A stretch of DNA of 58,253 nucleotides from a virus (lineage: Duplodnaviria; Caudoviricetes), in IMG/VR virus record IMGVR_UViG_3300044723_012229, positions 1-58,253 of that record; one strand, written 5' to 3'. This document shows, one piece after another, positions 12,653-55,337 of the stretch. A program made the position numbers and the translations under genes. Each line of letters starts with the position of its first letter. Position 1 is the first letter of the stretch. Below the pieces are notes generated by a model. The model worked only from the letters and a program-made list of their open reading frames with translations, was not told the origin of the DNA and did not search any database.

Positions 12653-15600
12653 TACCTATAAGTTAAGTCTTGAAGAATTATAGATTCCGGAGACTCGGGA
12701 ATGTCCATGTTAGCTTGAGGCGGTATAGGCATAAATGGACGACGAACCGCGTGCTCTCTATCGATAGCATCAAATTTGTTAAAATTATATTCCGTACCAA
12801 TGATTTCAAATGTTTGATCATCTTTTTCTTTTACACTAACAGCCTTATAATATCTATAACCCTGCAAGCTATTTTCATAATTAATATTATTTTCTAAATA
12901 TTCAGCAAATCCTGCTACCTCAAAATCAATAAAGCCCGCCTCATCGACAGATAATTCTAGCAGCCCGGTTGTTCTTGCAGCCTGAATCTCATGATACAAA
13001 GAACTGGAATTCAGAAGCTCAACAATTGTTCCATCTAAAAGGATAGTGTTCCAAGTGGAGTTCATAGAATTATTAATTTTTTTTGCGGCAGAAGAAGAGC
13101 TTATCTTGAAATTTTTACATTTTATTTTGATATTTTTATTTAAATCTACAAGATTTAGGCTTTTAATAGAAAACTTAAGAGCAACAGAAGGCTTTCTTTG
13201 CTTAGATTCGTCTGACTTCAAAAGCAATACCTCTTCTATTTCTAAAATCTTATTGACGCTTTGCGTCGCCCCTTCTCTCCCGCTATTCTCACTTTGATCT
13301 ATACTTGTTTGCCTAGATGGAGTTAATGTATTAACTTTTTGGCTGGTGACTATAGGATTACCAGAGGAATCATTTTCTTGCGGAACAACCCTAAACTTTA
13401 ATTCGTCAATCTCCTGAGGCGCTTGATCAATACTTAAAAAGTTATCTTCGTCATAATACATAGCAAAACCATAGCTATTTCTCAAACATTTTTCATTAAA
13501 AGAACCCAGGGATTTGTCTTCATCTGTCACGGTGAAACCCTCGGCACCACCTACTCCTTTAATAGTATAAAAACAATCGCCATCTTTTAACTGTACCGGC
13601 TTAGAAAGTATAACGCTCACATTTCCCCCAATAGAATCATAATCTCTTATATTTACATATTCTTGATTTACGGCATTAACGTCCCCAGGAGTAGAAAATA
13701 TAAATTTATCTCCCGGCCTCCCGGTTTGCGCTCCCCACCTTGTTAAATCTAAACTCTCCCTATATACAAGTAATAAATAACTATCCACCTGATTATTTAG
13801 AGTTTCATCGCCAGGGTCTAAATTCCACACAAATTCTTCGCCAACAGCATTTTCACTCGCCCCAAGAAGAGTATAATCAATTTCCTTACCTTCTTCAAAA
13901 GAAGCATCGATAAGCTTAACCCTAGATCCATTTTCAATTTGATGTATGTATTGAAGATCAGAAATTGGGTTCGATACAATTTCATACCTTGAGCCAACTT
14001 GTAGAGTTAAATCGTCTGAGCCATCTAGCAAATTTATTACCTCGTGCATATAATAAGATTCCTTTAAAAAAGACGGTATAGTTTCTGCGCCAGATCGAGA
14101 AAGAAATTCTTCCTCAGAAACATTAAAAGCTAAACACATTCTCCTGATCAGGTCTGCGCTAGATAGAACATTGCTCCAGCTAGTGATAGGGTCAAAATTA
14201 ATTAAGTCATCACCCCCTTGATTATCAACTATATAAGCTTCATTTATCGCCACATCAGATGGACTTATTTTTGCAAACACATACTTATATTTAAACTTCC
14301 CAAACTCTTCAGTCACTTCAGAATCTAAATTAAAAGGAATATTTTCATAAAAAACCTCGCCTATTGACCTGCCCCTAATAATTTCCAGCATTTTTTTGTT
14401 TTGAATCAACCATGACCCGGTTTCAACAAACACTTTGCTCCCATCATTCGCCTCAACCTCAGTATCTATTTTCTGAACCCAAACTTTAGGGTGAATATCG
14501 CCACTAACACCAACCAAATGAAGAGGAATCGAAAATCTACGATTATTAACGTCAACCGAGTCTTCAGGGATGGCGTTTATATTAGCACCTTTAAGTTCTA
14601 GATAAGAAAATTCAGATGATCCATCAGATGAAAATCTCAAGACAGCAGTACCGAGAGCATCAGACTTTATAAAATCTTCACCATTTAATGTACCCGGATC
14701 ATATACAGTAATATCTCCATAAAAACTAGAAGTAACCACCGACCCATATTTAAGATAAGTGTATGCATCAAGATGCAAAGCCTGTATAATCTTTTCGTCT
14801 TCAATTATACTCTCTCCGTATTTGTTGGTAGAAACTATTGTATTTACTCCATCTAAAACGTATGATGCCCCAATCTGTAATTGATTAAGGGCTTCTTGAG
14901 TTAAATTATTCTGACTACTCTCTGGACAAAAATAATGAAACCCTCCAGGGTTACCAAGAGAGTCAAGGCCCTCGTCGATAATTTCTACAGGAGCATCGCC
15001 TCCATTAGGAATTAAAGAAATCTGAAAGGTATTAAATGTAGAATTAACCACAAAATAAGCAAGCGTTCGAACTCGATCCTTTTGTATATTAGCAGGAAGA
15101 ACACCCTCAGAAACAAAACTTACTCTGTCGCCATCAGCAAGACCATGATTATTACACTCTAGCAAATTGTCATTCAAGTTGACGGTAAACTCTTTTTTTA
15201 GCAAAAAATTTACCAAGCAGCAACTTGAACCGTCAAATAATCTTGCCCCATCCTTAGCGCTACAATTAAACTTCAAAACCTGAGGAGAATAAATATTATC
15301 TATATCTAAATCTTGATCAACATCTAAACTTTCCAACCCAGCTTTTTTCTCAACAAGATCATAACTATCCTGAGAAACCCCAGCAGAAACAGTAATTTCT
15401 AATCTACCAAAAACTAATATGTCTGAAAAGTTTCTGTCAAGCTGTATAGCGGTTGCCCCTCCGCTACTTGTCGATTTAATGCCCAATACTCTACCAGAAA
15501 TTTGCCTTGAAGATCTCATATTATCAACAACTTGAAAAACCAATCCAGGCGCTATAGAGTTACCCTCTATACCACAAGAAAAACTTACTCCCTCACTTTC

Positions 15601-18600
15601 TAGCCTTGAAGTCAAAAGAGTCCATTTTGCAAGTCGCCTTGCTTGAGATTCAGAAGTTACTCCAAACCCTATAATCTCTTTCTCTCGGAAGCCAAGTCTC
15701 TGTATACCCTGAACATCTTCTTCATAAATAACATCTGGAGCAAATTTTTTCTCTTTATTGTTAAACCTCACCATGCAACTAGTGTATTTCATTTTCTTCT
15801 CCTCCCCTGAATAAGAGAAGCCGCCTTCTAAAACATTTGTATTATTAAATATCTTAACAGGTAACCTAGGATGGTCTTGACTTAAAGATATCTTCCCGTT
15901 ATTGTATGCAATCACAGACCTAAAGCAAGAAGCAATAGAGTTAAGCATATTAATTGCCTCTATTTGCTCTGTTATATAAATATTACATGTAAACCTAGGC
16001 TCTACAATAGGGTAGCTTTTTTGCAAAGAGCATCCACCAACAACCATGTCATAAGCAACCCCCTCATTTGGAATAAATGAAATAGAAGAAGAGCTGTCAA
16101 AATTTCCACCCTGAACAACGATTTGTCTAGACTCAGGTATAGATCTAACCAAAACCCTTTCTTCAACCAAGCAGTCCCTCCCCTGAGCGCAAGCGATAGT
16201 TTGAATTTGTCTAATAAAATCATCGCCTCTAGCTTTATAAGTTGATTTCTTGATATAGAAGGCAACCTTCTTTCCCTTATATTGATCGCCAGACCCAAAC
16301 TCATTTATAAAAGAATTCAAATCATACCTGTAAGCAACACCACTACCACTATTAAAAGAATTCAAAGAATCAATGAGTGAACCTACCGTCCAATTATATT
16401 CAGACTCAGTTGAGCCGTATTTAAATTTTTTATCACCAAGATAAATTTCATACTCTCTCAGCGTATTATCTCTTCCATATATATGATAAAAAACATCACT
16501 TATATTTGAACTAGATAAATCATCTTCAAACCTCACAGTATTACCACTTCTTCCCTCAAACTGCTTGGAGTTAATTGCGTTGTCATGAGCAGAATTTACC
16601 TTTACTGTATTAGAGTTCGTGTCTGTATATATGATGTAATTATCAAGAGAAACAGTAAGCTCTTCAGTATTCTCATTATACTGCTCTGATATATTTGTCC
16701 TAAAAGGACGAAGTAGATTTGTTGATGTTTCGGGGGCATAATTAGTAGCAACCAACTCGTCACAATATTTTGCTATTTTATATAATTGCCACTTGTCAAT
16801 ATCCTCAGGCGCTAGACCATATTTAGACACACCAAATCTAGGATTTGATATTACATCATAAAAAATCCACGCAGGATTATCGGTCCACCTAAGATTTGAT
16901 TCGTGAACATCATTTATATCAATTTCCTGAGAGTCTTGCCCCAAAAAAAGACCACTCCATGCTCCGTCATATTTCCTTGTATTTGGGTCATAATTTTCAG
17001 GGATTAACACCTTTTTAAGCTTGATATTATAAGACCTCTGCGGAGATTGAGAGAAATTTCTTGAATCAACTTTTAATCGAGTGAAACAACTGTGAGGATA
17101 TCCGACTTTTTGAAAAATAGTTTCTTGAATCTGTTGAATTCCAAGGTTTGCTCTTGTGAATATTTGAGAAAGATGCATGTTTCCAGTGCCATTGTTTAGA
17201 GGTTTATCACTAGCACGCATCCCGGTATTTCCAGTTGGATCAATTTCGTGAGTTATTTTCATGAACTTAAAAACAACGCCTCGAGTTGACTCACCCCCAA
17301 AAAACCTATCTCGATCAATATTTATGGTCAAAGGGATCTCTACTCCTCCCGACGCAAGACCATACAAAGTTAAAAAATCTTTAGAGCCTTCAGATATATA
17401 ATTTTGATAAACTACTGGATTATTATCAACAAAAGCCTCATAAGATTTTACAATAGCTTCGAGAGTTTCATAATTATAATCGTTTTTCTCGTCTTCGCTT
17501 ATTTGAGTCACAGAATTTGTAGAAATATTATTGCCGACAAGGGCTTCATATAATGACCTTTGTATTTCAACTGGCTTGTAATCATATTCTACGCTTGGAT
17601 TAGAAAAGTAGTAATTCAAACCATATACAGCCTTACTCACAGATGAACCAACATAAGAATGATTCCCAGCAACACCAGACAAACCCTGTTCGCTGTACCG
17701 AGAAAATCCTCTTCTAGGAATCTTTCTTCCATAAGTTTGCTGCGCGGTTATTTTATGCCACCACTGATCGTTATCTGACTTTACTATCGTACATCCAGAC
17801 TCAGGACTAAATATATTATACTCAACACCCCCTCTTTCAACAAAAACAGAAAAATCCACAAAACAGTCAGATGTCCACGAATGACTATTTGAGCCGTCCA
17901 CCCTTTGCTGCTGATACTGCAATTCAGCAGACATAAAAAATGTTACCTGACCTACGTTTTTATTTGACACAAGATAACTAAAAACTTGAGACCCAGCCTC
18001 TCGAGCAAAATGTATTTTATCTAAATACTCACTGGCTGAACTTTGATATATTGATTTATAGGCGGCTCCATTAACTTCGTCTTGAGGAGACGGACCAAAT
18101 AAAGTCTTATTACCAAGGTCAATTAAATACGAACTTTTCTCTGGAACAAAATTACCCTGAGCCCCTAAAGAACCATCATTAAACTTGCATTCATCTTCAT
18201 CAACACCCTCACTAAGAACAAAATTAGTTCTTCCGTCTTTAGTAATAACAGGCACGTTATTTAAGTGGACTGATTTTAAATTTTTATTATAACTCTCTCC
18301 TTCGTTTTTGTATACCTTAGCCCCGGTCTCATCAACCAACCCCTCGACAGGACCCTCGCAAAGCAAGTCAAGATAATCGTATTCAGCAACAGACTCTAAA
18401 GAATTTATGTCGCCCCTCGTAGTTGTTTGATTAGTTTGATGCCTAACAACTTTTTCCTCCCCTATATTTGACGACCCTATCAATAATTGACCGTAACCCA
18501 TAGGCACTGGATCTCCTTGGCTTTTTCTATTCTGGGCCCCGCTCATAATATAAGACCTAGTAGAAACTTGTTCGCTTGTATGCTTGGGGGGCGCAGGAGG

Positions 18601-19005
18601 CTTAAACAATGCCTGTATACCAAAACTAATAGCAGCAAAAAGTATTGCCTTAAAAAGAAAGCCTTGAGCCGCAATCCACTTACCTATTTTTATTATCGCC
18701 GGAATAAAAAAGCCGGAACCAACTAACTGAGGAATAACATGAACCTCGTCGGTGGACAATTTTGCATTATAAGTTTTCTCGCAAAACATTTTTCTTTTAA
18801 AAGATTCTTCAGTTTCGTCTTTCGAGATTTTCTTATTTAAAAATATATAATTATTACCCGAGTCATATTCTTTTAATAAATAATTTAAAAAACCCTCCTT
18901 ATTGCAATCTATAGCATGCAAGGCCTCAGGTACAGAGTCTACATCCAAACTCCATACTTTTCCGAACCTCTTGCCGAGGCTTCCATGCAGAAAAATCTTT
19001 TTCAT
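12652..19005 (-). CDS. Tail tip protein: lambda gpI-like (beta-grasp) domain fused to gpJ N-terminal hub domains
   Basis: 2117 aa. MKKIFLHGSLGKRFGKVWSLDVDSVPEALHAI and QGDPVPMGYGQLLIGS are gpI-like. LDLLCEGPVEGL, PENYDPNTRKYDGAWSGLF, WTDNPAWIFYD, DKWQLYKIAKYCDELV, EPRFTCN and GVTSESQARRLAKW are gpJ-like. Confidence 0.92.
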   Translation of the reverse strand: MKKIFLHGSLGKRFGKVWSLDVDSVPEALHAIDCNKEGFLNYLLKEYDSGNNYIFLNKKISKDETEESFKRKMFCEKTYNAKLSTDEVHVIPQLVGSGFFIPAIIKIGKWIAAQGFLFKAILFAAISFGIQALFKPPAPPKHTSEQVSTRSYIMSGAQNRKSQGDPVPMGYGQLLIGSSNIGEEKVVRHQTNQTTTRGDINSLESVAEYDYLDLLCEGPVEGLVDETGAKVYKNEGESYNKNLKSVHLNNVPVITKDGRTNFVLSEGVDEDECKFNDGSLGAQGNFVPEKSSYLIDLGNKTLFGPSPQDEVNGAAYKSIYQSSASEYLDKIHFAREAGSQVFSYLVSNKNVGQVTFFMSAELQYQQQRVDGSNSHSWTSDCFVDFSVFVERGGVEYNIFSPESGCTIVKSDNDQWWHKITAQQTYGRKIPRRGFSRYSEQGLSGVAGNHSYVGSSVSKAVYGLNYYFSNPSVEYDYKPVEIQRSLYEALVGNNISTNSVTQISEDEKNDYNYETLEAIVKSYEAFVDNNPVVYQNYISEGSKDFLTLYGLASGGVEIPLTINIDRDRFFGGESTRGVVFKFMKITHEIDPTGNTGMRASDKPLNNGTGNMHLSQIFTRANLGIQQIQETIFQKVGYPHSCFTRLKVDSRNFSQSPQRSYNIKLKKVLIPENYDPNTRKYDGAWSGLFLGQDSQEIDINDVHESNLRWTDNPAWIFYDVISNPRFGVSKYGLAPEDIDKWQLYKIAKYCDELVATNYAPETSTNLLRPFRTNISEQYNENTEELTVSLDNYIIYTDTNSNTVKVNSAHDNAINSKQFEGRSGNTVRFEDDLSSSNISDVFYHIYGRDNTLREYEIYLGDKKFKYGSTESEYNWTVGSLIDSLNSFNSGSGVAYRYDLNSFINEFGSGDQYKGKKVAFYIKKSTYKARGDDFIRQIQTIACAQGRDCLVEERVLVRSIPESRQIVVQGGNFDSSSSISFIPNEGVAYDMVVGGCSLQKSYPIVEPRFTCNIYITEQIEAINMLNSIASCFRSVIAYNNGKISLSQDHPRLPVKIFNNTNVLEGGFSYSGEEKKMKYTSCMVRFNNKEKKFAPDVIYEEDVQGIQRLGFREKEIIGFGVTSESQARRLAKWTLLTSRLESEGVSFSCGIEGNSIAPGLVFQVVDNMRSSRQISGRVLGIKSTSSGGATAIQLDRNFSDILVFGRLEITVSAGVSQDSYDLVEKKAGLESLDVDQDLDIDNIYSPQVLKFNCSAKDGARLFDGSSCCLVNFLLKKEFTVNLNDNLLECNNHGLADGDRVSFVSEGVLPANIQKDRVRTLAYFVVNSTFNTFQISLIPNGGDAPVEIIDEGLDSLGNPGGFHYFCPESSQNNLTQEALNQLQIGASYVLDGVNTIVSTNKYGESIIEDEKIIQALHLDAYTYLKYGSVVTSSFYGDITVYDPGTLNGEDFIKSDALGTAVLRFSSDGSSEFSYLELKGANINAIPEDSVDVNNRRFSIPLHLVGVSGDIHPKVWVQKIDTEVEANDGSKVFVETGSWLIQNKKMLEIIRGRSIGEVFYENIPFNLDSEVTEEFGKFKYKYVFAKISPSDVAINEAYIVDNQGGDDLINFDPITSWSNVLSSADLIRRMCLAFNVSEEEFLSRSGAETIPSFLKESYYMHEVINLLDGSDDLTLQVGSRYEIVSNPISDLQYIHQIENGSRVKLIDASFEEGKEIDYTLLGASENAVGEEFVWNLDPGDETLNNQVDSYLLLVYRESLDLTRWGAQTGRPGDKFIFSTPGDVNAVNQEYVNIRDYDSIGGNVSVILSKPVQLKDGDCFYTIKGVGGAEGFTVTDEDKSLGSFNEKCLRNSYGFAMYYDEDNFLSIDQAPQEIDELKFRVVPQENDSSGNPIVTSQKVNTLTPSRQTSIDQSENSGREGATQSVNKILEIEEVLLLKSDESKQRKPSVALKFSIKSLNLVDLNKNIKIKCKNFKISSSSAAKKINNSMNSTWNTILLDGTIVELLNSSSLYHEIQAARTTGLLELSVDEAGFIDFEVAGFAEYLENNINYENSLQGYRYYKAVSVKEKDDQTFEIIGTEYNFNKFDAIDREHAVRRPFMPIPPQANMDIPESPESIILQDLTYR

Positions 19006-19023
19006 CCTTATTCCTAATATATC

Positions 19024-19347
19024 TTATACACAATTATAAAAGCAAAACTCATCATATCTAATACTATATATTAAAAACGGCAAGCCTAATGATTTAAACA
19101 ACTTTTTATCCGCGACAGACATTTTAGGTTTATCTTTTATATGAGAATGAAAAACACACTCAACTTCATTCTCAATGAATAAATTATAATCAATCTCAAA
19201 AGTATATACAGGATACATACTTAAGTTTCTAGAAGGAATAAATTTTAAATCATTTTGTATTTTTACAATTAGGCCACAAGACTCTTCGTGACTATTTTTT
19301 ATTGCATAATTTTTAATCTCTTGTTTTAATTCCCCCGATATAATCAT
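19024..19347 (-). CDS. Tail assembly protein K-like, stand-alone JAB/MPN (JAMM) metalloprotease
   Basis: 107 aa with EESCG...HSHIKDKPKMSVAD (E...HxH-x7-S-x2-D). It sits between gpL and gpI and has no NlpC/P60 domain. Confidence 0.9.
   Translation of the reverse strand: MIISGELKQEIKNYAIKNSHEESCGLIVKIQNDLKFIPSRNLSMYPVYTFEIDYNLFIENEVECVFHSHIKDKPKMSVADKKLFKSLGLPFLIYSIRYDEFCFYNCV
19027..19031 (-). promoter_or_regulatory. GTGTA putative phage late-promoter motif upstream of the gpI-J gene
   Basis: Minus strand reads aattGTGTAtaagatatattaggaataaggATG. Confidence 0.55.
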
Positions 19348-20498
19348 GATTGATTGTATCTAGCGACACCTGGAAACCCTCCAAACGGAAGAGGGCCATA
19401 ACCGCCTGAAACTAAATCTTCGGGATTTATTACGTCTCCCTCATCTTGCCCAACTCCACCTAAATTAAAAGCAATTAGATCTGGATCTTCTCCAGTGAAT
19501 CTTTTTTTGCATGCATCAAATGTTTTTTGACATTCGTCTTTAGCCCAGTGAGATCTACTTAAAAATGGATGGTAATCGCTTGGGTTCGCATGGCTTTTTA
19601 AGCAAACAAACAATTGAGGGGTCTTAAGGTAAGGGTTATTATTTGGGTTGATAACCTGAATTTTAGCTAAGTCCCCAGCCTTGTATCCATAATTATTAAC
19701 TTCTGTTCCAGCAACCCACCCACCTTGACTATATACATGCCCATAACGATTCCATATCGGAACACTATCAGCAAGATTTGGATATTTTGCGGGGTCAATA
19801 AAATTAAACTCACTGTCCTTAGATAAGTTGTTTATTTGAGTTAAATCTCTACCAATAGAATCCTCTATAGGCAAACCTTCGTAACCGCACCCCACAGAAC
19901 ATCTATAAGTCCAATTACAATAGTTAGCCATTATTTTTCTAGCAGGAACAAAAGCATCTTCTAGCTCCATTGCAGAAGCGAGCTCAAAAGTTATTCCATC
20001 TTTATCTTCAGAAACTTTTTTATTTATATAAAAAATATCCTCAGGAAATCCAGCGTTTTGATCTCCATACCCAAAAGGATTCACATTCTCTTCATTTAAA
20101 TTTCTGTTCTGAAAGTTTTCTGGGTCTAGAAACCTTGCAAACACTCTGTGCCTAGTGACTTTGCAATTCAGAAAATCTTCATTGTAATATACTATTTTTG
20201 AAAAAATTCCCTCAGGATTTGCCATGCTCAACTTAGGTCTAGGTAGAGAGCCTTGGCTCTTTTGCTCGACATCCTCAAAAGATATGGGCATAGGTTGATA
20301 CGAATTACCCTTCCAGACAATAGGATTTGTGCCATTTTCCATAGAAGTAAACCTGTATACAGTAAGGTTAACTGCATCTTGACCTGGAATATTTATAAAG
20401 TTCCCCTGAAAAGGAGAAAGGTCAATTTCAAATAGAGAAATTAATGCATCAGGAGATACAGAAAGTAATTGCTTATTTCTATCTGCAGAAGACTTCAT
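19344..20498 (-). CDS. Minor tail protein L-like (lambda gpL family, Cys-ligated Fe-S domain)
   Basis: 384 aa. IVWKGNSYQPMPI, LPRPKLSMAN, ITFELAS, RKIMANYCNWTYRCSVGCGY, DECQKTFDACKKRF, LPFGGFPG. Confidence 0.93.
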   Translation of the reverse strand: MKSSADRNKQLLSVSPDALISLFEIDLSPFQGNFINIPGQDAVNLTVYRFTSMENGTNPIVWKGNSYQPMPISFEDVEQKSQGSLPRPKLSMANPEGIFSKIVYYNEDFLNCKVTRHRVFARFLDPENFQNRNLNEENVNPFGYGDQNAGFPEDIFYINKKVSEDKDGITFELASAMELEDAFVPARKIMANYCNWTYRCSVGCGYEGLPIEDSIGRDLTQINNLSKDSEFNFIDPAKYPNLADSVPIWNRYGHVYSQGGWVAGTEVNNYGYKAGDLAKIQVINPNNNPYLKTPQLFVCLKSHANPSDYHPFLSRSHWAKDECQKTFDACKKRFTGEDPDLIAFNLGGVGQDEGDVINPEDLVSGGYGPLPFGGFPGVARYNQS

Positions 20499-23400
20499 TA
20501 TATCAAAAGATCAATATTTCGCTCCATCCACTGACTACCCCACTCCGACGAAGTTATGCCAGGTTCAACATTAGGCTCCATATATTTACTATCATAATCC
20601 TCAACATTATTATAAACATTCTCAGAAATATTCCAACCCATATCTTCCAGAATACCCAGTGTTAATTTTGAGGATTTGTCAGATATTCTATACCTATTCG
20701 CAAGAGTTATCGGGCTCATTATCGCAAAAGGAAAAGAAGGCTGTATAAACCCGGTATCAGCGATAGACCTACAGGTCTCCAAAAAGTGCGCACCATTTCC
20801 ATACAAAGCAACAGAACCAAGCCAGCACTTAATATATTTACCGTTTCTGTCTATCGCATGATATATATCATCACCCAGTTCAATTTTCATCCAATAATCA
20901 CTTAAATATTGGTTAAATAAAGAGGGGTAATTATCGTCTTGACTCGATATGCTCTCGTCAAAAACCTGAGGAGTTGAAGTCGCTATATAATAATCTCCAT
21001 TATAAACCCCAATCTGCCCAGAGCTATGAGCGACATGTGGATCTATAGATGCGCCTGTAGTGTCTGCCCCCGAATCAGGAGACAGTTGCTCTCTGACATA
21101 TTTACCATATTCTTCTAGGGTTTTTTTGCCGTAAAATTGCCACCCCCATTTTTCTCTTTGGGAGGATCCAATATTAGATGTTCTTAACGCAAACCTATCT
21201 CCTTTAAAAGAGCTCGATAATGTAGATGCGACAAGAGCCACGTCATCTATAATTTCTCCTACATTTTGAGCCTTAATACCCAAGACATGCAAGAATTCAT
21301 GCAAGGTCGTGGAATAAAATCCGGAAACAGGCACGCCATCTTCTTTACTGAAATTTGGATAACTATGATATGCAATATCAAAAAAGTTTATAGCGTTATT
21401 TTCATCCAAAAAGTCCACAGGATTATACATAATTTGACCATAAGCAGGAGAAGGCCTATAAGAGCCATTAACATCCTTCATTCCAAGAAACTTTTGTTTG
21501 ACCCATGCCGCAGCAAAAATATCTGCACTATCTCCAAATCTTCCAGCAGAAGCCTCATAAAGACTTACATTCAATATAAAATTATCCTTAACAAAAGCAT
21601 TCAGCTTTTGCTCTACATAGTATAACTCTTTTTTCTGTTTTTCGCTCAAGTCAAGAAATATTCTTGTGTTTATCTTTAATCCTTCCGAGTTTAACTTTTC
21701 CGGCAAAGCATCCCCCCTACCTGCATAAGTTGTGACTCTAGGAAGCTTAAAAAATGAATCTATAGACTTAAAGGAATTATCTCCCGAGTAATATTTACCA
21801 ATATCTATAGGAATATTGTGAGTCATACTCGCAGAAGCTTTCTCGTTATATACTTTTGATAAACAATTTAAATATTCATTACCATAGAATGAATCTTGCA
21901 GATTTGATATCCAGTTATAATTATTAGCAACAACATGGTCGGCATTAATTGAAGGATTCCAGCTTCCAGCCTCTGGATCCCCGGGAATTGCAAAGATGTT
22001 ATTATTTAAACCAAAAGCCTGGCGAGTAAAACTTACTACATCTTTAAAGTTATTTATTTCCACAAAGTTATCAGCATTATCTAAACCGCCTTCTTCAAAA
22101 ACATTATGATTAATACAACCATAAAACTCATCTTCTCCGGACGCAGATTCCTCACAAGAAATAAAAACAGGAGTGCCCTTTCCTATCATATCTCCAATAG
22201 AAGGCGAAGAGCCATTAGTATACCTCAGTAGGTAGTAACTATTTTGTTTGCTTCCAAAAGGAGTAACAACAGTATTAAATGGAATAGTATTTAATACGCT
22301 TGAATCTTTTACGGTTACGTAGTCTTTTTTATTATTAGCCTCAAAAATAGCTCCATATAACAAAACTTCAAATCCATAAATAACACCATACCGAAAATTT
22401 CCATGAGTAGAAAAATCGATTCTATCAACTTGCCTAAAAGATTTTTTATGCAAAAACTCTTCAGAATCTTCATACATTGCAGAAAACTTATAGTGATACA
22501 TATCTCCCTGAGTATAGTTACTTAAAGAATATTTTGCCCCCTCGGCAATATTTAATGTGTGTGTATTAAATATTTTCTTATAAAATCTTAAAACAGAATC
22601 TTCCCCATAACACATCTCTGCTTTTTTGCATGCAAAATTAAATCTTTTTTTGGAAAAATTCCTAGAATACCTTACTGATGAAAATAAAATATCCCTCACC
22701 CTGTTTGCCGCTTCCGTGCCCGTATACAGACTGATATTTCTATTAGTAAACACTCCAGGATTTATAAAACCATGATCCTTTGAGTAGACATTGGATAAAG
22801 CATAAAGCCAAGATGGAGATGGCTCGTATTCCGGATTTAGTCCTTTTTTATTCAACCAATTAAATTGTAGATTTGTTGGATTCGCATCCACCCCAAGCAA
22901 ATCTCCCACTAAAGTAAATTCATTTTCAATCTTAACTTTAATAATTCCTGTCATAGAAAAATCACCAACATATTTAAATATTCTACCAACTTGATTATCA
23001 ACTATACCCAATGAAGGAAAGTTTCCTTGTATAAACCTATCAGTTTCATCCATTTCGTTCCATTCTAAATCTACGCCCGGAACAGAAGAAGTCTGAACAG
23101 AGGATTGATAAAACTTCCTGTCAAATTTAACTACAGAACCAGCTTCATATTCTCCCTCAGCCCAATCTGCGGGAACCATGGTGCATTCAAAAGCATCCCC
23201 GACAGACTCATTTCCAGTTCCCCCAAAAATAGAGTAATCAAAACTTTTTCCATCTAACGAAGAAACTGTATAATTTTCCCCCACTTCAGCGTAGAAAGGG
23301 TTAAGAGATATAGGCTCCAATATTTTATAAGAATTATTTTTAACAAGAGTACTCATTGGCGCATTAATAGTCGACACCTCTGACTGAGCAACCCTCATAC

Positions 23401-26400
23401 TGTTTAAATCTTGTGTTGATAACATTTTTCCTATATTATTCCCAGAGTGAACCAAAGCGGGAACATCAAAAGTTATAGTTTTGCTATATTCTTCGCCGTC
23501 GGGATAAAAACTTGCCGCCTGACTCCATTCGATTAAGTCTCGAGCGTTATCTATAGTTGAATCTCTACTAGCAGTAATATTCCTATTTCGATCGTCATCA
23601 AAGGTAATCGCATATGCTTCATACGGACCGTCCCACTCTTCCTCAATAAACTGTCCAGTGGTTGGAATCTGATTGGACTGATACATATAACCCTCATATA
23701 CAACAATAGCATATATACTATAAGAAGTGCTCGAGCTCCAATCAACCGCATTATATTTATCTTTGAGATAAATAAGGGTTCCAACTTCACCGCTTGACCT
23801 AAAACCAGAAGAATCAGATGGCCTAAAAGTAAATATAGTTGGATCATGCCAAGGATTATACAGCCAATTTTCTCCGACCATGTTCACAAACCAACCCAAA
23901 TCATAAAATCGATCAAGAGTTGAAGTACCAAAACTTTTAAACTCTAAAAACTGAGATATAATAGAAGGAAAATCTAGAGACATAAAAGTTTCATCATTAG
24001 AAACATTTGTTTCTATAAACATAGTATTCGACTGAAAGCTTCCATCATTAACAAAATCAGAATCAAGAGAATAATAAAAAGTTCCGGTAATTAAACGCTC
24101 TGAATTCAACATGACATGAGCGCTGCCATGATCCATAAAAAACCTAGAATCTTCCGCGTTCCATTCAAAACCAATAGGTACATACTGCTTACCCCCTTGT
24201 AATTGATCAGAAGAAAATATTCTATCACTAAGATTTTCAGGAATGTGTGCTATTGTAATTGGCTGCTTAAACCCAGAGGCATCTCCCTGGTCTTCAAATT
24301 TTTTAGTTTCTTTTAAGTTTCTCAATTGAACAGGATGGTCTAAAATCCAGACAGAAGAAAATATATCTTCATCATCAATATATTTCATAAAAACTTCCGC
24401 AATTTCTTTATTCATTATTCTATTGTTGCTAGTCTGATTAGAGTCGAAAGAAATCTGCTCTATTCTATCTTGATCTTCCTGACTCATATCCGAGGAGTAT
24501 ACAATCTTACTGGTTTTCCTAAAATTACCACGATCAACAAAAGTTCCAAAAGAAACGGACTGCTGCTCCTGCATTAGAGATGTCAAGCTTAAAAAATCTG
24601 CACCATTAGGAAGGTTCAAAACTTTAATTTTTATATTATCAATGCTATACTCACTAACAAACTCACTTATAGTAGTACGACCATCAACAACCCTAAAAAT
24701 TAATTCGCTATCAACAACTTCCCATCTATTTATTTTCCCGTCATCCTCAAAGAAAGAAACTTTTTCGATAAACTTGTATGGACCATCAAGAGTTATATGC
24801 ATAACAGCAATACCCCCATTAACAGAAGGAACCAACACTTCAGCAAATACAGATTTTACATCTTCATAATTCGCTAGATTATAATTGTAATCATCAGGAA
24901 TCTCACAAGGCAAAGCATGAGCAAAGTCAGAAGAGCAGGGCACTATCGGATTATTTTCTGAAGATAAATATTTTTTTTGATTTATTTTCTTTGTAGCAAT
25001 TATTTCCCACTCAGATATTACTTCTGATTTATTTTCAAAAGGTAAGTAAATGAGCCTCCCATCTTTTGATATAATTTGATAAAATCCCGATTCGCTTTTA
25101 ATTATTCCATAAGTATAAGCCCGGGGCATTAATTCTATTTCAATATTAGCGATATCTTGATTAGAGCTAAATTTACTTTTTATAACCCCATAAGCTTTCA
25201 CCCTTTCATTTACTCCCCCAGCTTCATATCTTCCAACAATAATTTTACATATTCCTCGCTGAACATATACTTGATCATAACCCTTATCAGGGTCTACTTT
25301 TTCTACTGACAACACAAAATGATTTTCGTTATTAATGTCATCAGCGTCGATTAGTTCTGCCATCTTAGAGCCTACAGGCCAATTTTCTATAGAATGTGAA
25401 GTATAAGGAGCGGAAATGTCATCATGCATCTCTACAGGAAACATTATATTTCCACCATTTAATCCATATGCATATATTTTATACTCCACCCACATCCCTT
25501 CGTGAGCGCTTATAAATTCATCCACACTTGCCTGCCCAACAGAACTGATATCTCCGCTATGAGTAAACTCCACTAAAGCAGTTTGGCAATTATCAGGAAA
25601 TTTTTGGAAATCTTCAGGATACACAGAGCAATCATCCTCTAGTCGTATTACTTTTGAGTTCCCAGACCAATTAAGACCCCAACCATCTCTTAATGCTCTA
25701 AATTTCGTGCCAGCGTTATTACCAGTAGATCCCACGAGAGAAAAATTATCATTATCAGGATTTTCTAAAATCTCAAAGCGATCCCCTTCGGTAATATAGA
25801 AAGCATCTACAGACCAAACATCACCTTCTTCTTCTTTGATTGTTATATCAAGATTAGAACTGTTGGATGTAGAGATATCAATAGAAAACTTACTCTCGAA
25901 AACCTCGGACTCCTTATTCAATCGCACAGAGTTTGAGTCCATATTATACAAATTAAAAGTATTCCAGGGTAATATATATCCATCAAGCTTAGCTTCATAC
26001 GCCCCGCCCTCTATTGGAATATTTGCGTTTTCTATACTTAAAGGATTTATTTCCACAAAAGATAATCCACTTAAGTCCGAAAGCACCAAAGATATCTCAG
26101 AAGTGCCAGTAATATCTGGAGCATCTATAGTAGAAGTAAATACTTGACCAACGTACTGACTAGACTCATTTGGGCCATTACAACTTGAAAAATCCGTATC
26201 TCCAGTTTTGGTTATAATATATTTTTGATCTTTTTGAATCCAAAAAAGAGGCACAGACATTGCAGGCCCCACTCTAAACCTAAACATATCCCCAATCTCA
26301 GGATCTTTAACTTCAGCAAAAAACAGTCCGTTAATTAAAGAAGCGTTTTCTTGAATAAGCTTAACTCCAGACTTGTTAAAAACAACAATCTCACCAACCT

Positions 26401-29400
26401 TAACAGTAGACTGATCACTAACCGAAGAAAAATTAACACTTTCCGCTCCGTCCGCAAACAGCAACTGATATTTATTTCCAGCAATAATTTGAGATGCATT
26501 TATAACCCTAAATGCTGCAGCCTTATATAGCTCTACTTGATCGGGATTAGTCACAGAAGTAATCTTGTACGTTTGGCCGGCAACACCCTCATACCACAAA
26601 ACATCCTCACCCTCTTCGACCTCACCCACTAACTCAAGCCAAGAGTCAGAGGGCCTGTTTTTTTTCACCGTTGCATCTCCTGCAAAAAATTTACCCAAAA
26701 TTAATTCTTCCGGAGATTGATCTTCGTCTTGCTGCCCTTCCTCTTCGGCTAAAAGATTATTTTCAATATCTTTCAATAATAAAGACTTAAGCTGCCCTCC
26801 GTCACTATTTGCTTGATGAACAAACTCTGCAGTCTTAGAGGCAGCAAAATATTGTATTGCAGAATTTTGGCCGTAGATATATTTTACCGCAGCATTACCA
26901 TAATTTAAGTTTTTTGAACCAACGAAAAAACTATTATTGCATACATTCAAATGATTCCAATCGCCGCCCGAAGAAGGGCTAAAGCTTACTATGCTTGTAT
27001 TTGGCGCAGAATTCCATATTCTGTCTATTGCTTCAGATATAGTCCAGTTCTCTATTCTCATTGTATCACACTCAGAAACAAGAGAGCCTCTATTCCCCCC
27101 CAGCATGGTAGTATACAAGTTTATCGCATGGTTGGACGTATCGTTTTTAACGATATTCAATTTCCATAAATCCTCTTCGTAATACTCCTGCATCAACCAC
27201 GACCAATATGTAGGAAACTTAAGTAAAGGAAAACCATTGACGTAGGGAGTTTCGCTAAAGCACGACAAGATCTCATCTTTCGTCGGAGCATCTGCATCAT
27301 TATACCAAGAAATCCAGTCTAGATTATGAACGAAGGCGTGGCTTCGCCACAAACCGCGCTGGCCTTGAAGGTTATAAGAGCCATTAGAAAACAACATAGC
27401 AGAAAACCTAAGTTTCTCCCCGGAATTAAAATTTCGCCACAAAGCATCTCCGCTATTTCCTGCAGTTCCATAAGCTACCGCAACAGTGGCGCATTTGTCA
27501 AACATAGATGTTATATTGCTTTGGGATATTTTTTCCCACTGATCATGCCATTTATGCTGCTGATACTCAAATTCTAAATTATCAGCAGAAGCAATCCAGT
27601 CTTCAATAAGGTTTTTGCCCCAATTACGCGATGTAGTCTGTGCGCCTCTGCCGCTCCACCCTATAGCAACAGTTTTAACCCCGGCAAGCGAGGTTAAAAA
27701 AGTCATAAACAGATAAAAACAAGAAATAGTTCTTGAATAATGTGCGCTTAGAGCATTGGTGGCACCCCTTTTGTCTTTGCTCCATGCGTTTGCGCCTCCC
27801 GTAATGCTTATAGAAATTTTATCAACAGATGCCTCCCAGAGTTTTGAGGTTTTGTTAAATTTGTATACATTTACTGCGCCTCGTTTACTTTTATGACCTA
27901 TCAGTTTATGTATGTAATCATTTAACCCTTGACCAAGCTTGATACTAGGCACAATATTACCATTTTGCTCCCTAGATTGCTGAAGAAGGTATGCGAAATA
28001 CGAGTATATTGCCCCTACTATCGCAGGATGACACCAACTGAAAAGAGGGTGCGGCCCAGGTACACCTTTAAGATTTAGTATTCCAGATACATAATTATTT
28101 TCAATAAAGTACTCCCCTCCGTCGCCCTGCACGGTAAAGGAGCCAACCTTATCCCAGTCTTCCTTAACGATTCCTTTGGCCCCGCTCCCCAAATAAGTTT
28201 GCTCTTGAAAAGATCCAAAATTTTCTTTAACAAACTCAAAAAACTCAGGGTTTTCAAATAAATATTTATTGCCAAAAATAGGAGAGAATAAAGTTTGATC
28301 TTCCCAGCCGTGGTGATGCCATTTGCCTTCATTAGGGGCCGTTTTGTAAAAAGGAATTCTGACATTATTACTAAGATCTATATATTTATTTGAACCACTA
28401 TATTTTTCTCTCTCCAGGGCACTTGTTAAAGGGTTTGATGTGCATATAAATTCAGTACCAGTCGGCATATACATTTTTATATATGTATTATGAACAAATC
28501 TTAAACCAACATCAACAGTATCAGGGTTTCTGTATTCTGGGGCGGCAACCAAGCCATGCTCTATAGCAGTAAAAGAAAACCCAATCTCGGTTTTAACGCA
28601 ACCAATTTTAGCAAGTAAATCAACAGAGTTATTCTCAGATGGGTTTTCTAATATACTATAACTTTCTCCCTTTCTAATTTGTGCGTAATCTACAATAGTA
28701 GAACCCTTACCTTCTATCGAAACGAGCGGTAATTGACGTTGAACTTGAATATTTTTATACGCCTCCGGAACCACATAATCTTCAGGAGAAAATATCACCA
28801 AGGATCCGACATCATAAGTTCCTGAAATACCTATATTCGAATAATCAAAACCTTCTACCTGTTGAGTAATTTTAAAAACATCGCCGTTACTTAATTCTGA
28901 AATAGCAACAACAAAGTGATCGAGGCTGCCCCAAGGCTTCTCTCCATTGTAAATAAATTCAAGACCAACCAGGCCCTCTTTTTCTCCGACAATATTTTTA
29001 TCAAGGCCAATCGTCAAATATAAATCGTAATCAGAGTCGTCAATAATTGTACAAGAATCCCCTTGAACAAGATCATTTAGCGGAACATTTCTGCTGTAAA
29101 CTCGAAGCTCTTCGGAGACATCTTCAATAACGCTTTCCATGCTATCTGCACCCCTCAAAGAGTCGATAAAGTCTTGATTAAAATCATTCAGATTAACGGT
29201 GTTATTAATATGAGCCTTATAAGAAGAGAGTCCAGACCATTGAGAGATTTGTTGTTCGGGATGAGCTCTGAAACTATGAATTACATGCTTTATAAGTAAA
29301 TCATTAGGCTTAATACTTGACCATGTAGTCAAAACATCAAACCTAGTATCATCAACAAGGAGGTCTTCTTCTTTGATCAGATAAGTTTCGCCGACAACCA

Positions 29401-32400
29401 TACCCTGCGTTGCAGTTTCTAAGTCAATAGATTTTATAGTAAAAGTATCCCCTTTTGATAAAGCTTGTGGAGCAACCCTTCTTGAATTTTGAGATAACCT
29501 TCTGTATGTTGCCCCAGAAAAAGATAGTTCTCCGCTTTCTTGATTTGTCTGAGAAAGTAACAAGTCATAAACTCCATCATCACAAAGACTTCCAGCGCTT
29601 TTACTCATTACTGTGTTTATTTTTTTCTCCTTCGGATACGCTGAAAAATCTTCATCAAACGACTGTTTGGCAAAAGATTTCTCCAAAGAGGTTCCGTAAT
29701 AATTCAGACTTTCACTACCCTTGTATATATCAATAGGAAAACCCGCAAAAAATTTAGGATTTTTTATTCTTGAGGCAGATGCTACAGATACCTTATTTAA
29801 CACATCGTCTCCAGACCATTGAATGCCCAGCTTAGATCCCAGTCTTGGATTTTTTTGTAGTTGGTAAAAATGCTCGATATTAAAACTTTTATTTTTTATG
29901 TTTACTCCATCGATAATGCCATCTAAAACAAAAGAATAATCCCTACTATTATTATATAAAGGATTGGACCCCCTTTGCATAAAGCTATCTTTATTAAATC
30001 CCTTGTGCTCAGAAGCAACAAAGTAAGCCCCGCCAGCTTTTTCATGTTTTGTAGACTCTAAAGATCTAACCTCTAAAACCATATCTCCATCCCCCCACTC
30101 AACAGACCTACCCGCCCTTGTGGCAATAAATGCGTCAGAACTAAGCGCTCCAGATTCTTCTGAAGAGCACCCAATTAGATTAAAACTGTCCTTAGAAGAA
30201 TCTTCATTCTCAAACACGCAATAAATTCTACCCTTAACTACATTGGAAGCATGAACAGGATTATTTTGATGTTTTAAAAAATATATAGAAGGAGCACACA
30301 AAGATGCCTCCGAAAGAGGTTTGGCAGAGTCAATCAAAGCTTCTTCTTCGGCGTCTCCAGCCACCCAATTATTTACAGATACTTCAGTTGTATTTGCTTC
30401 TCCTGTCTGATAATAAACCCCAGCGCCACCTTCTGCAGTCCTCCAATCTATTTCCATCTTTGACGTTAAACCAGCATTTATTATAGACACTTTTATTCTA
30501 CCAGCCTTTTCTCCCTCAAGGTTTTCCCAGGCTATAGCTTCACTATCTTCGTCGCCGATATATTTATAAAAATCTGAATCATTTGCTTCGTTTATAATTA
30601 GATCAATATAACCCCTCTCAAAAGGTCCCAGTTTATTACTCCCGTATTTAAGGAACAGGTCTCTATTTAAAAAATAACTAGACTCAATTCGAGTTTTATA
30701 AGGAGTCAGAATGTCCCCATTATTTTTTTGATGATATGTCCCCTTTATTTCTTTATCAAGAGACTGAAATCCTTGTTCGGCGCTATCAGCGGTATATCTA
30801 TCTAATTTTATTTGCTCTCTCTGCAAAGGTATAAAGTTTCTAGAAGCCTGATCAAACCTTAACCGATCAGAAGAATAATCCACTAAAGAATTTACCTTCA
30901 CAACTGACTGATCTGCGGTTAAGTTTTGTGAAATAATTTTTACATCTGAGGCGACAATATTTTTATATTCCTCTGAAGACTGTATAGCAATAATTATATT
31001 TTCCGTATTTTCATAAACATCAGGGTGATTATACTTTTCAGCTTGGAATTGCAAATCTACACTGCCATCATCCGCAAAAAGATCTTTTACAATAATTGAA
31101 ACAGAATCATAGGTTACCATATTTTTATTTAATCCTGCGGCATCCCCAATTAGAGTGTTAATTTTTTCAGGCATATACAAATAGATCAACCTCAACATTT
31201 CTTTAGTGAAGTCCGCAACAGTCCAATAATCCGGACGAGTTAGCTCTAAACTATCTACCAAAAGTATCGACAAAGAAGACGAATTATCTCCAGGATTAAG
31301 CCAATCACTCCAACTTTTCTCTTCTCCGGAATCATTTTTATTATCCATCGGAAGAATATCATTAAGTATAGTGCTTTTTCTTAAGTCAGTTAGAGTGTCT
31401 GTGCTTATAAGAGTTGGTGTTATGTAATTTTCACCAAACTGCCTAGAATACGTTGCCTTTACCATTCCATCAAATCCTAGCGAAGTAATTTCAATTTCTC
31501 CGGATCCTATATTCTCAAATTCGATTCTTTTGACGAAAGGTTTTGAAGCAGAAATAGGCTGAGATTGACTGGACATATTCACAGGAGACCGAAGCATCAA
31601 CCTTCCTGGAGCTACAGGGCTCGGAGATATTAAATTTGCTATTTCGCTAGACCCTACATCGAAAGGAAACTCAATAAAAGTTACTTTTATAGAGTGATTG
31701 TTTTTGTAGTTATAAACATGAGACCAATCCCTACAAATAAAAGACCTAGGATTATCATATGGAGCTGGAGCAGTAAACCTAAATGGTATACATCCATATC
31801 TTTGCTCCAAAAAGTGAAGTATAGCATATGTTTCTGCATCATCTCTATTTTCAAAAGACAAATCCATGGTTAGCATATTTACATTTATTCCGTCGCTATA
31901 TATTTGAGAGTAAGATCCTTTTGTCCTTTTCTCCTTTACTCTTGGTTTATGATTTACGGAAAGCTTTGCGGTAGGCCTCCACTGAAAATCCTGAGTCCAA
32001 ACATCTGTATGAAGATTCTCAAAGTATCCAGTATCCCTACTCCATTCTTCAGAGGCTTGAACCGGAGGGGCTCCAACAAATATCGAATCATCTTTATATA
32101 CAGTTGTTGTTTCAGACTCTCCAGTTTCAGAGTCGATTGATATCTCTATTACAGGAGCAGGCTTGCAGTAATAATACTGATGATTAATTAGGGAAAAAAC
32201 TACATCATTCGAGCCATATCCAACCCCATCAAACCACTCATCTGCACTCTTAACAAATAAAGACTCAGATTTATTAAGCAAAGATGTACTTAAAGTTTTT
32301 AAAGTGACAGTTAAATCATGGCTATTTTCAAAATTTATTGTATGAGAAAAGTCGGTACAGTAAAACTTTTTTGATTGATTATCTAGCGAATCATAAGGGT

Positions 32401-34773: not shown

Positions 34774-35694
34774 TTACCTTATAACCCCAATCAAAGATAT
34801 TACACTTTTAGCAAGAGATCCTTCAGATATTTCTGATTCTTGTGAAGAAATTTTCCCAGAACAAGTAAATGATGCAATTCTTTCCCCCTCCAAAGAATTT
34901 AAAAAAACACCCAGAGTAGTGTCGGCGTTTTTCCTCAAAAAATGAGCATCTTGCTGATCGCCAAAGCTATTTAAATTAGGAATCATTTCATTGGCGACTA
35001 TCTTTGACCTGCAAATTATTTCCTGCACACTCATACGGGTTGGGGTTGCTCCGCCAGCATTAGTATTAATAGAAGTATGCTCGTTTCTTCGTATGGAATG
35101 ATGGCTTTGCCTATTAACCTCCAAAGAATAATCTAATGAAGATATTTCAAAAGAATCGGAGCCGACTGCAGAGTCAGCATTTTGCCCGCTTATAAAAATA
35201 TTACCAAAAGACTTCAATCCATGAGCAAATGTTTTTTTATTGTAAGACATTCTCTTTGCTACAGTTCTAGTAATTGTACCATATATATCATAAGACGCAG
35301 AAGCAGAAATTATAGAAAAAGGTTTAAGAGAAAAAGAAAAAGATTTTAAATACATATTGTCAAAAGCATATCTTCCAACAACGTTTGTATTTATAGGCTG
35401 ATCGCTCATTCCTTCTGCAATTTCAAACATTCTAGATATACTATTTAAAGAACCCCCTTCATTAAAGTGCTCAGGTGTTACCATAAATTCAATCTGCAGT
35501 TGACCCACCAACCCATCACTCGGAGCAAAATTAACAAAATCAACAGTAGCACCCCCTGTTTCAATATCGAACTCACCAAACTGGCGCTCCATATTTAAGG
35601 TTGTAGACAAAGACAATGAAGCTTTACTCGCAAGAAGCTCTTGCCCGCTGATTACAATACCAGCATCTTCGAATCTTAAAAACGGCTTACTCAT
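34774..35694 (-). CDS. Tail-tube-fold minor tail protein (putative)
   Basis: 306 aa, beta-strand pattern matching the tube paralogues (NMYLKSFSFSL...ISASASYDIY; EISSLDYSLEVNRQ); located between TMP and the distal tail protein. Confidence 0.6.
   Translation of the reverse strand: MSKPFLRFEDAGIVISGQELLASKASLSLSTTLNMERQFGEFDIETGGATVDFVNFAPSDGLVGQLQIEFMVTPEHFNEGGSLNSISRMFEIAEGMSDQPINTNVVGRYAFDNMYLKSFSFSLKPFSIISASASYDIYGTITRTVAKRMSYNKKTFAHGLKSFGNIFISGQNADSAVGSDSFEISSLDYSLEVNRQSHHSIRRNEHTSINTNAGGATPTRMSVQEIICRSKIVANEMIPNLNSFGDQQDAHFLRKNADTTLGVFLNSLEGERIASFTCSGKISSQESEISEGSLAKSVISLIGVIR
34801..34805 (-). promoter_or_regulatory. GTGTA motif ~36 nt upstream of the 4755-aa gene
   Basis: Minus strand reads taaaaGTGTAatatc...aaggtaataacagaaATG. 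It lies within the preceding CDS, so support is weaker. Confidence 0.4.
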
Positions 35695-54521: not shown

Positions 54522-55337
54522 ATGTCCAACAAAAAGATATCTGAACTCGAAGAGCGCGTGGGATTAAAATCCAACTGCACAGAATCAGCCCTGAATGAAT
54601 ATGAGGGCGATCAAGACTTAGATCTAGATTCGACTTATTTTATGATTGCCAGAGAGAACATTAAAAACGAAAAAATTAATTTCAATCGATTCAAATCATC
54701 AACACTAGATTCTTCGCTTCTAGACCACGGAGCACAATCCTTAAAAGGCGTAAAAACATTTAATGCAAATACCTTAATAGAGGGAAATGCATATATTGAG
54801 CACATAACAAGCGGCTCATACCAAGACAACGTAGATGAAACAATATGTTTTAAATATAAAGCAAATATAAATCAAAATATATTTCATATAAATTTCCCCA
54901 AAACCTTTAAGCGCAAGCCAGTTCTCTCAGTCTCCACCCAGTGTTCATCAGGATCAATTCTTCCATTTATAATATTCAATGTAACAGAGTATAAATTTTC
55001 CATAAAATTTGCAACAAATATAACACAAGAAGACTTTTATATTCACACTACAGCCTACAGCCCATCTTTTGCTTTGGGCGAAGGATTAACCAATATAGCC
55101 AATCAAGGGTCAGCTCAGTCTTTTATTCAAGAGGTAACCTCCGGAACCGACAGGGCCATTATTTCATTTCCAACTCAACACCAATCAAGTCCAATCGTTT
55201 CTGCATGCCTAGAGGGGTCAGGCCCGGTTATACCGAGTGCATTATCAAACATAAACAACTCTTCTTGCGAAATAATTTTTTCCTCGAATCTTCCTGAAAA
55301 CTACTATGTACATATAATTTCACATGAACAAGGATAA
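54522..55337 (+). CDS. Small fibre-like virion protein
   Basis: 271 aa. N-terminal KKISEL, GAQSLKGVKTF fibre motif, two I.FP..f...P.vS beta-sandwich repeats. Confidence 0.6.
   Translation: MSNKKISELEERVGLKSNCTESALNEYEGDQDLDLDSTYFMIARENIKNEKINFNRFKSSTLDSSLLDHGAQSLKGVKTFNANTLIEGNAYIEHITSGSYQDNVDETICFKYKANINQNIFHINFPKTFKRKPVLSVSTQCSSGSILPFIIFNVTEYKFSIKFATNITQEDFYIHTTAYSPSFALGEGLTNIANQGSAQSFIQEVTSGTDRAIISFPTQHQSSPIVSACLEGSGPVIPSALSNINNSSCEIIFSSNLPENYYVHIISHEQG

Follow-up and report, generated by a model that had tools for sequence, protein, structure and literature searches.

The last ∼390 residues of a giant tail-tip protein of 4755 amino acids (aa), encoded on the minus strand of a tailed-virus contig (IMG/VR record IMGVR_UViG_3300044723_012229; Duplodnaviria, Caudoviricetes; 58,253 bp, the whole of which we call the window), carry a metzincin-like set of zinc-metallopeptidase motifs. 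The protein is of the lambda gpM type, that is, a distal-tail (Dit) ring protein, and the explanation that we favour, at somewhat better than an even chance, is that the domain is a split-site metzincin-kind zinc metallopeptidase borne on arms of the Dit ring, from where it would cleave a protein of the host surface. This explanation builds on direct observations: that the motifs are present and conserved, how the neighbouring genes are arranged, that the domain is distributed as an accessory, and that it is homologous to viral ‘putative metallopeptidases’. The domain probably defines a new metzincin-like family that decorates an ‘evolved Dit’ (a ring protein with added modules), with a function that we infer from sequence comparison. 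In the literature, at the level of abstracts together with passages of one review of siphophage adhesion devices (PMC7291167), no phage Dit is described as carrying a metzincin or an M8 domain.

A peptidase-type domain at the end of a giant Dit protein

The features of the giant protein and of its terminal domain are as follows.

20498–34765, minus strand: giant gpM/Dit-type tail-tip open reading frame (ORF), 4755 aa plus stop; PF05939 (Phage_min_tail) and phrog_14 (minor tail protein)
31436–32710, minus strand: tandem gpM (Dit ring) region, aa 686–1110; best PF05939 stretch at aa 926–1032 (31670–31990)
20546–21706, minus strand: putative C-terminal metzincin-like metallopeptidase domain, aa ∼4354–4740 (∼390 residues), delimited by alignments and by hhalign to viral metallopeptidases
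21278–21301, minus strand: HEFLHVLG, putative zinc-binding helix with H4489, putative catalytic E4490, H4493 and G4496; HEFLH at 21287–21301 (aa 4489–4493)
20777–20800, minus strand: GNGAHFLE, with H4660 (candidate third zinc ligand, 164 aa past the Gly) and E4663
20711–20725, minus strand: AIMSP, with the conserved M4683, candidate Met-turn (Met invariant in 13 of 13 sequences)
20630–20671, minus strand: SKLTLGILEDMGWN, conserved closing-helix motif with T4702, D4708 and G4710 (Asp and Gly invariant in 13 of 13)

An earlier note, made from the letters of the window alone, had described the host protein as a giant distal-tail protein, and this description is confirmed. The ORF matches PF05939 (lambda gpM) over two stretches with 79.9 bits (cut-off 39), the gene lies between those for the tape measure and gpL in a syntenic tail module, and the label is correct because passages of the adhesion-device review equate gpM with the hexameric Dit ring (PMC7291167). 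The protein comprises an N-terminal part of ∼690 aa, the tandem gpM region and a C-terminal extension of ∼3600 aa with the peptidase-type domain last: the layout of a ring domain with added modules, as in an evolved Dit. Self-BLAST found no internal repeats in the 4755 aa at E 1e-3, and the tandem gpM region had no match in GenBank phages by tblastn.

Translation of the minus strand over 20498–22300 runs successively through STTLHEFLHVLGI, GNGAHFLE, AIMSP and SKLTLGILEDMGWN and then reaches the stop. All four motifs reported in the earlier note are thus present in one ORF and lie where that note placed them; their exact positions are 21287–21301 (HEFLH), 20777–20800, 20711–20725 and 20630–20671. 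The location of the domain also stands, but its limits, first drawn at 20520–21620, are replaced by the slightly wider span 20546–21706 that the alignments set. The 4755-aa protein contains a single HExxH against 0.094 expected from composition, and because of this, together with conservation across 11 homologues, the motif set exceeds what chance would provide. The active-site stretch reads HEFLHVLGIKA, with neither His nor Asp at the canonical third-ligand position of metzincins, six residues after the second His; among the members of the family only one, P0003, has a His at that position of HExxHxxGxxH. The C-terminal 430 aa contain two Cys. We regard the region as very probably a zincin- or metzincin-type catalytic domain, and as one that is probably active in this phage.

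Conservation among phage homologues

An exhaustive phmmer search with the last 430 aa against 1.84 billion representative sequences (E≤0.001) returned only three relatives: P0003 (4569 aa, 47% identity), P0004 (1522 aa) and P0005 (2063 aa). All are of the gpM type, and in each the match lies at the extreme C-terminus; P0003 is collinear with the 4755-aa protein. A near-twin of the giant protein (4753 aa, 97% identity) is encoded on a separate contig, and it was the only match of a whole-protein search that included the C-terminal region. A homologue search restricted to longer proteins found none; a profile of the domain found none at E≤10 among proteins of near length; and a metagenome scan returned solely a contig already known. 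Scans of viral contigs added L002, L003, L005 and a partial L004, and a survey of tandem-gpM loci (see below) added L012, L023, L070 and L076. What the domain-bearing gpM proteins share is a domain at the N-terminus, the tandem of gpM domains and a single block in the middle; huge inserts set them apart.

Eleven phage sequences, 18–45% identical to the domain of the window, were aligned (numbering of P0002). Twelve columns are invariant, and six of these are motif residues: H164, E165, G171, M358, D383 and G385. H168, H335, E338 and T377 are each retained in 10 of the 11 sequences; when viral stand-alone forms (described below) join the alignment, the distal His and Glu are present in 12 of 13. 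The spacing from the Gly to the distal His varies across the family from 57 to 175 aa (164 aa in the window), and that from the distal His to the Met from 21 to 45 aa.

The departure from this pattern is L012 (8415–9614, plus strand), in which HEMLS stands for HExxH, Ser replacing the second His, and the distal His and Glu are gone; the Met and the closing helix are kept. The joint loss of H168, H335 and E338 suggests that H168 and H335 form one site, and shows that the scaffold persists without those His residues. The L012 copy is possibly a pseudo-enzyme, to judge from its altered motifs.

A wider viral family

A further scan of viral contigs, with T-[LI]-[GA]-x-[LI]-E-D-x-G-W as the pattern of the closing helix, gave 29 stretches. 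Five of the ORFs recovered (L090, L092, L096, L098 and L099) carry HExxHxLGxG, G-x-H-x-x-E-G and E-[LI]-M-T in order, the first of these being cut off in L092, and score 41.0–79.6 bits against the phage profile. Compared by hhalign, the phage family and the five ORFs align along the entire domain, over 243 columns, with a probability of 99.7% (E 4.2e-26). L098 (6759–7595, minus strand) is identical to a 279-aa ‘putative metallopeptidase’ of Aureococcus anophagefferens virus, YP_009052303.1; it and L090 (5197–6030, minus strand) are stand-alone homologues of 278–289 aa on giant-virus contigs. Each viral stand-alone form that has the region retains the putative ligands together with the Glu and the Met.

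The Aureococcus virus protein is homologous to the phage domain throughout and has its set of motifs; it differs in being a small, free-standing protein of an algal giant virus, with an insert of 57 aa against 164 aa in the window. Stand-alone proteins of this type are uncharacterised and so bring no functional information. Two of the five ORFs have a different architecture. In the 1006-aa ORF of L099 (6642–9659, plus strand) the domain is fused to immunoglobulin (Ig) domains (PF13927, PF13895 and PF07679), with a weak N-terminal match to Mtd_N, and in L096 (307–1827, minus strand) it is fused to Pro/Thr-rich linkers; both products look like surface-displayed viral proteins. The L099 domain had no match in phages or plasmids by tblastn.

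Structure prediction with AlphaFold gave poor models, both for the domain of the window with four sequences (predicted local distance difference test, pLDDT, 36.1) and for that of P0004 with seven (pLDDT 46.0; predicted template modelling score 0.56). The better scores fall in the strand-helix-strand at the N-terminus and in two helices, that of HExxH and the closing one, and the predicted order of secondary structure, strand-helix-strand(s)-active-site helix, is compatible with a zincin. Foldseek returned no match at E≤0.001 in the PDB, and none in BFVD for the low-confidence model of the P0004 domain; the second BFVD match of that model was the Aureococcus anophagefferens virus protein identical to L098 (E 0.021).

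Comparison with leishmanolysin and other metzincins

The earlier note had recognized in the motifs the signature of M8 leishmanolysin, and this holds in part: the order of the motifs, the long insert between Gly and distal His, the Met and a GP63-like helix after it are all present, but neither the leishmanolysin profile PF01457 nor the leishmanolysin of the PDB gives a significant match. Parts of two sources (bioRxiv 10.1101/2024.02.17.580826; PMC6899020) define M8 by HEXXHXXG, by a third His set off by a large insert, and by a Met-turn; the first of these sources, in the part concerned, puts the insert between Gly and third His of GP63 at 62 aa in Leishmania and 150–270 aa in group G3 of T. 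cruzi (bioRxiv 10.1101/2024.02.17.580826). HExxHxxG, the long insert, the distal conserved His (in the phage domain a candidate zinc ligand) and the conserved Met are features that the phage domain shares with leishmanolysin/GP63 and invadolysin. The likeness extends to short peptides: those of GP63 in an epitope table (VTHEMAHAL, MAHALGFSV, AQDELMAPA, LTMAIFQDL and FQDLGFYQA; PMC7075555) align at equal spacing with HEFLHVLG, AIMSP (ELMSP in P0004) and L-T-L-G-I-L-E-D-M-G-W of the window, so far as the peptides of the table extend. Within that extent, an ELM[AS]P turn is followed by T-x-[AG]-I-[FL]-[QE]-D-[LM]-G-[FW], position for position.

Differences from GP63 are equally evident. The phage domain is fused to a tail protein, and is not secreted or anchored by glycosylphosphatidylinositol. 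The distance from His to Met is 11 aa in GP63, against 21–45 aa in the phage domain. Leishmania GP63 has, in the part of the source that deals with it, 19 conserved Cys and a Cys switch in the pro-peptide (bioRxiv 10.1101/2024.02.17.580826), against two Cys here, although so many Cys may be peculiar to trypanosomatids and not general in the family.

Profile searches point weakly to the wider group. From 11 sequences upwards, the PDB matches are nearly all matrix metalloproteinases, snapalysin and archaemetzincin, aligned on the HExxHxxG helix and below threshold (E 0.08–2.4). NCBIfam NF038122 (‘family metalloprotease’, metallo_LGF) gives weak matches in 6 of 7 members (16–24 bits against a cut-off of 80; best E 1.4e-6), which cover the N-terminal strand-helix and the HExxH region, and the matrixin profile PF00413 is matched by one family member (E 0.0088). 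With matrixins and other metzincins (M10, snapalysin, archaemetzincin) the phage domain shares the active-site helix with its Gly and the downstream Met; unlike theirs, its candidate third His ligand is distal and not at the HExxHxxGxxH position. Neighbours of the domain of the window in the ESM Atlas are bacterial Peptidase_M8 clusters, at a score of 0.83 that serves as a lead only; the three best neighbours of the P0004 domain reach 0.94, 0.93 and 0.92, and 17 of its 30 matches belong to the PF01457 set. We read these similarities as those of a domain of metzincin type whose topology is M8-like; that it belongs to M8 by descent is plausible, though true membership seems to us rather doubtful.

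A ring protein of a relative, L072, contains a matrixin (described in the next section), and descent of the domain from a diverged copy of it was considered and rejected, because hhalign covers just 25 columns at 27.5%, the HExxHxxG helix only.

An accessory module on ring proteins

A survey of related phages for exchanged modules, proposed in the earlier note, was made on 72 viral loci recovered with a tandem-gpM region, the gpM ORFs of which were searched with the domain profile. Such modules were indeed found. The domain is present in 6 of the 72 (L008, L012, L023, L030, L070 and L076), and other long forms carry CBM_5_12 (L071) or a matrixin (L072). Three ORFs (L008, L020 and L030) run off the locus; among the 69 with a stop inside it, four have the domain. 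The majority of the 72 ORFs are 730–1550 aa long.

The gpM ORF of L072 (5284–10446, plus strand; 1721 aa) matches matrixin (PF00413) with 50 bits against a cut-off of 24, at aa 794–895, inserted just before the second gpM domain; on this evidence the Dit ring of that lineage acquired a metzincin independently. The gpM ORF of L073 is of equal length and has the same HELGHVFGLTH motif. In L071 (1401–5885, plus strand; 1495 aa) CBM_5_12 repeats occur, instead of a peptidase, at aa 1146–1178. The carbohydrate-binding module (CBM) of L071 and the matrixin of L072 together imply that peptidase or binding modules have been added to the ring protein more than once. Since the domain occurs in 6 of 72 and relatives carry other modules, it is an accessory, placed at the end of an arm that varies, and not a core part of assembly, a status that argues against a role in tail maturation and for an outward-facing, host-specific one.

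The known evolved Dits of lactococcal, streptococcal and Lactobacillus siphophages have, in the passages of the review that treat them, carbohydrate-binding modules inserted in the galectin domain, and not enzymes (PMC7291167). To that extent the present protein is like them, a distal-tail ring protein with extra host-facing modules and a relative (L071) with a CBM; it is unlike them in its tandem lambda-gpM ring, its extension of ∼3600 aa and its terminal module of peptidase type.

Four further gpM ORFs (L027, L043, L057 and L068; 1545–1553 aa) have in common the motif HEYNHYKN, at aa 490 within the N-terminal extension, which may be a zincin-like site or chance.

A possible mode of action and its alternatives

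How might the domain work? A Dit ring, at the tip of a lambda-like siphovirus tail, would be assembled from the tandem gpM domains. That of lambda is, in the review passages, a hexamer of single-domain gpM (PMC7291167); here three two-domain chains could form a pseudo-hexameric ring. The ∼3600 residues past the ring would make long arms around the tip, with the peptidase at their ends. Its zinc site would be split as in leishmanolysin, into the HExxHxxG helix, a long variable insert, H4660 and E4663, M4683 and the closing helix TLGILEDMGW: zinc would be held by H4489, H4493 and probably H4660, water polarised via E4490, and M4683 packed beneath the site, by analogy with metzincins. Carried on an arm, such a zinc endopeptidase would reach the host surface ahead of the central gpJ tip, and by cleaving a surface protein (an S-layer, a glycoprotein coat, appendages or a matrix protein) it could free or uncover the receptor. 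We infer the fold, the role of H4660 in binding zinc, the activity, the display on the virion and the substrate; that the domain acts on a host-surface protein during adsorption we would place slightly short of an even chance. In its fullest form the proposal is of an undescribed virus-borne metzincin-like family, a distant sister of M8 found in algal giant viruses and in an uncultured clade of long-tailed siphophages, which in the latter yields a ‘proteolytic evolved Dit’ whose three to six very long arms each end in an active endopeptidase that digests a protein layer and gives the tail tip access to its receptor; to this full statement we attach only tentative belief.

Alternatively, the domain may be a binding module derived from a protease, a pseudo-enzyme or adhesin whose old substrate cleft grips a host surface protein, making the arm a receptor-binding fibre. 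L012, which keeps the domain, the Met and the closing helix with Ser for the second His and without the distal His and Glu, is what such a module might look like; CBM_5_12 on the same ring protein in L071 and the binding modules of the known evolved Dits, as passages of the review present them (PMC7291167), point the same way. We nevertheless judge it unlikely as a general account: putative ligands, catalytic Glu and Met are intact in the window and in 10 of the 11 phage members, despite identities of 18–29% among the distant ones, and the same residues are intact in the viral stand-alone forms where the region is present, a retention typical of active enzymes. Tail virion-associated peptidases are usually peptidoglycan hydrolases, and a hydrolase of peptidoglycan peptides that aids tail penetration, like the M23 or NlpC/P60 enzymes of other tail tips, has also to be weighed, the more so as the gpK homologue of the window (107 aa) consists of JAB only, with no NlpC/P60 match, so that wall-cutting might sit elsewhere. 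No search revealed similarity to M23, M15 or NlpC/P60, however; the weak matches point to metzincins of endopeptidase type, some 3600 aa separate the domain, at the end of an arm on the periphery and not in the central tip or lumen, from the ring, and presence in only 6 of 72 relatives speaks against a core role in penetration. We consider this explanation improbable.

Slightly less probable still is a role in cis or in assembly, be it self-processing, an intramolecular chaperone that is removed once the arm has folded, like the S74 domain of the nearby fibre, or the maturation of tail proteins such as the tape measure. The 3858-aa fibre next to it has its Peptidase_S74 chaperone in an equally C-terminal position, and processing of tail proteins had been raised as an option in the earlier note; but 66 of the 72 tandem-gpM ORFs have no profile match (one of them, L020, being cut by the locus end), which makes a core assembly role unlikely, and the free 279-aa homologues of algal giant viruses and the fusions to Ig arrays have no fibre to chaperone. 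No metzincin is known to us to serve as a chaperone of this intramolecular kind. Finally, the resemblance could be a relic or a coincidence, a zincin-like region with no metal site that forms a distal fibre knob. A confident structure was not obtained and the sequence of the window itself has no significant match to a curated peptidase, which speaks for it; set against this are the exact conservation of motif residues across phage and giant-virus proteins, the hhalign probability of 99.7% to the viral metallopeptidase family and the fact that the weak matches are consistently to metallopeptidase models only. This we hold to be very improbable.

Several results weigh against the interpretation as an active, M8-like peptidase on the Dit arm. 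PF01457 has no match in the six frames of the window at E≤10 and is matched in none of the 10 phage members scanned; the highest score that it gives at all, 12.4 bits (E 0.062; cut-off 21), is for L098. Pfam finds no peptidase in the domain of the window at E≤1, single-sequence Pfam and PDB searches with the last 600 aa find none either, and leishmanolysin is absent from the results of PDB profile and sequence searches at E≤10, with profiles of 4, 11 and 13 sequences. NF038122 likewise has no match in the six frames of the window at E≤10. The five viral ORFs that bridge to the giant viruses were chosen by a C-terminal motif, and their scores are therefore somewhat inflated, although the alignment reaches far past that motif. 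The domain was found in none of 50,697 GenBank phages (tblastn). Lastly, the loss of two His in L012 makes a non-catalytic, binding role viable at least in that lineage.

The interest of a proteolytic Dit arm lies in its novelty, since the phage-tail enzymes known are almost all glycan depolymerases or peptidoglycan hydrolases. If the interpretation is correct, some phages cut protein barriers (S-layers, glycoprotein coats, appendages), a counterpart to the glycan depolymerases of tailspikes and to CBMs; evolved Dit proteins gain a module of a new class; and phages are linked with giant algal viruses by a new family of peptidases outside the coverage of Pfam. The matrixin of L072 would in that case be a sign that proteases were recruited convergently to the ring protein, and, with matrixin and CBM both present on the ring proteins of relatives, the clade would constitute a natural experiment in the swapping of host-facing tools at the tail tip. 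Domains of this kind could yield proteases specific for surface proteins.

The tail module and the remaining genes

The record is estimated to be about half complete. Its minus strand encodes a lambda-like tail module in the order tape measure, two ORFs with no family match, the gpM ORF, gpL, a gpK-like protein, a gpJ-like protein and an S74 fibre.

36857–47422, minus strand: tape measure protein, 3521 aa, upstream of the gpM ORF (PF10145, 95.9 bits)
34774–36860, minus strand: two ORFs (306 aa, 389 aa) that separate the gpM gene from that of the tape measure; no Pfam or PHROG match
19344–20498, minus strand: gpL homologue, 384 aa, directly downstream of the gpM ORF (PF05100, 141.4 bits; phrog_18)
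19024–19347, minus strand: short gpK-like protein, 107 aa (phrog_30, E 1.2e-19; PF14464, 18 bits against a cut-off of 25)
12652–19005, minus strand: gpJ-like central tail-tip protein, 2117 aa (PF13550 Phage-tail_3, 54.9 bits)
1076–12652, minus strand: fibre protein, 3858 aa (C-terminal Peptidase_S74 chaperone, 56.5 bits; CBM_5_12 match)

This gene order around the gpM ORF recurs in the relatives L002, L003 and L005. The gpK-like protein has the JAB/MPN part only, NlpC/P60 being unmatched in Pfam and PHROG searches. By the rule of thumb that tail length is ∼1.5 Å per residue of tape measure, a 3521-aa protein predicts a tail of roughly 0.5 micrometre.

Relatives of gpL among GenBank phages number 1355 records, all with less than 60% identity and mostly from phages of Gram-negative bacteria and cyanobacteria, which is weak evidence for a diderm host. 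Neither the domain profile nor the gpL profile found related prophages in reference bacterial genomes, so these gave no clue to the host.

Two further observations concern possible host-facing proteins elsewhere in the window. The 3858-aa fibre also holds a single HENFH, at aa 2340. On the plus strand, an ORF of 275 aa (55324–56151) has near-threshold matches to an H-type lectin (23.8 bits against 24) and to the baseplate domain BppL_N (22.8 against 25.8), and may, on the strength of these similarities, encode another receptor-binding protein.

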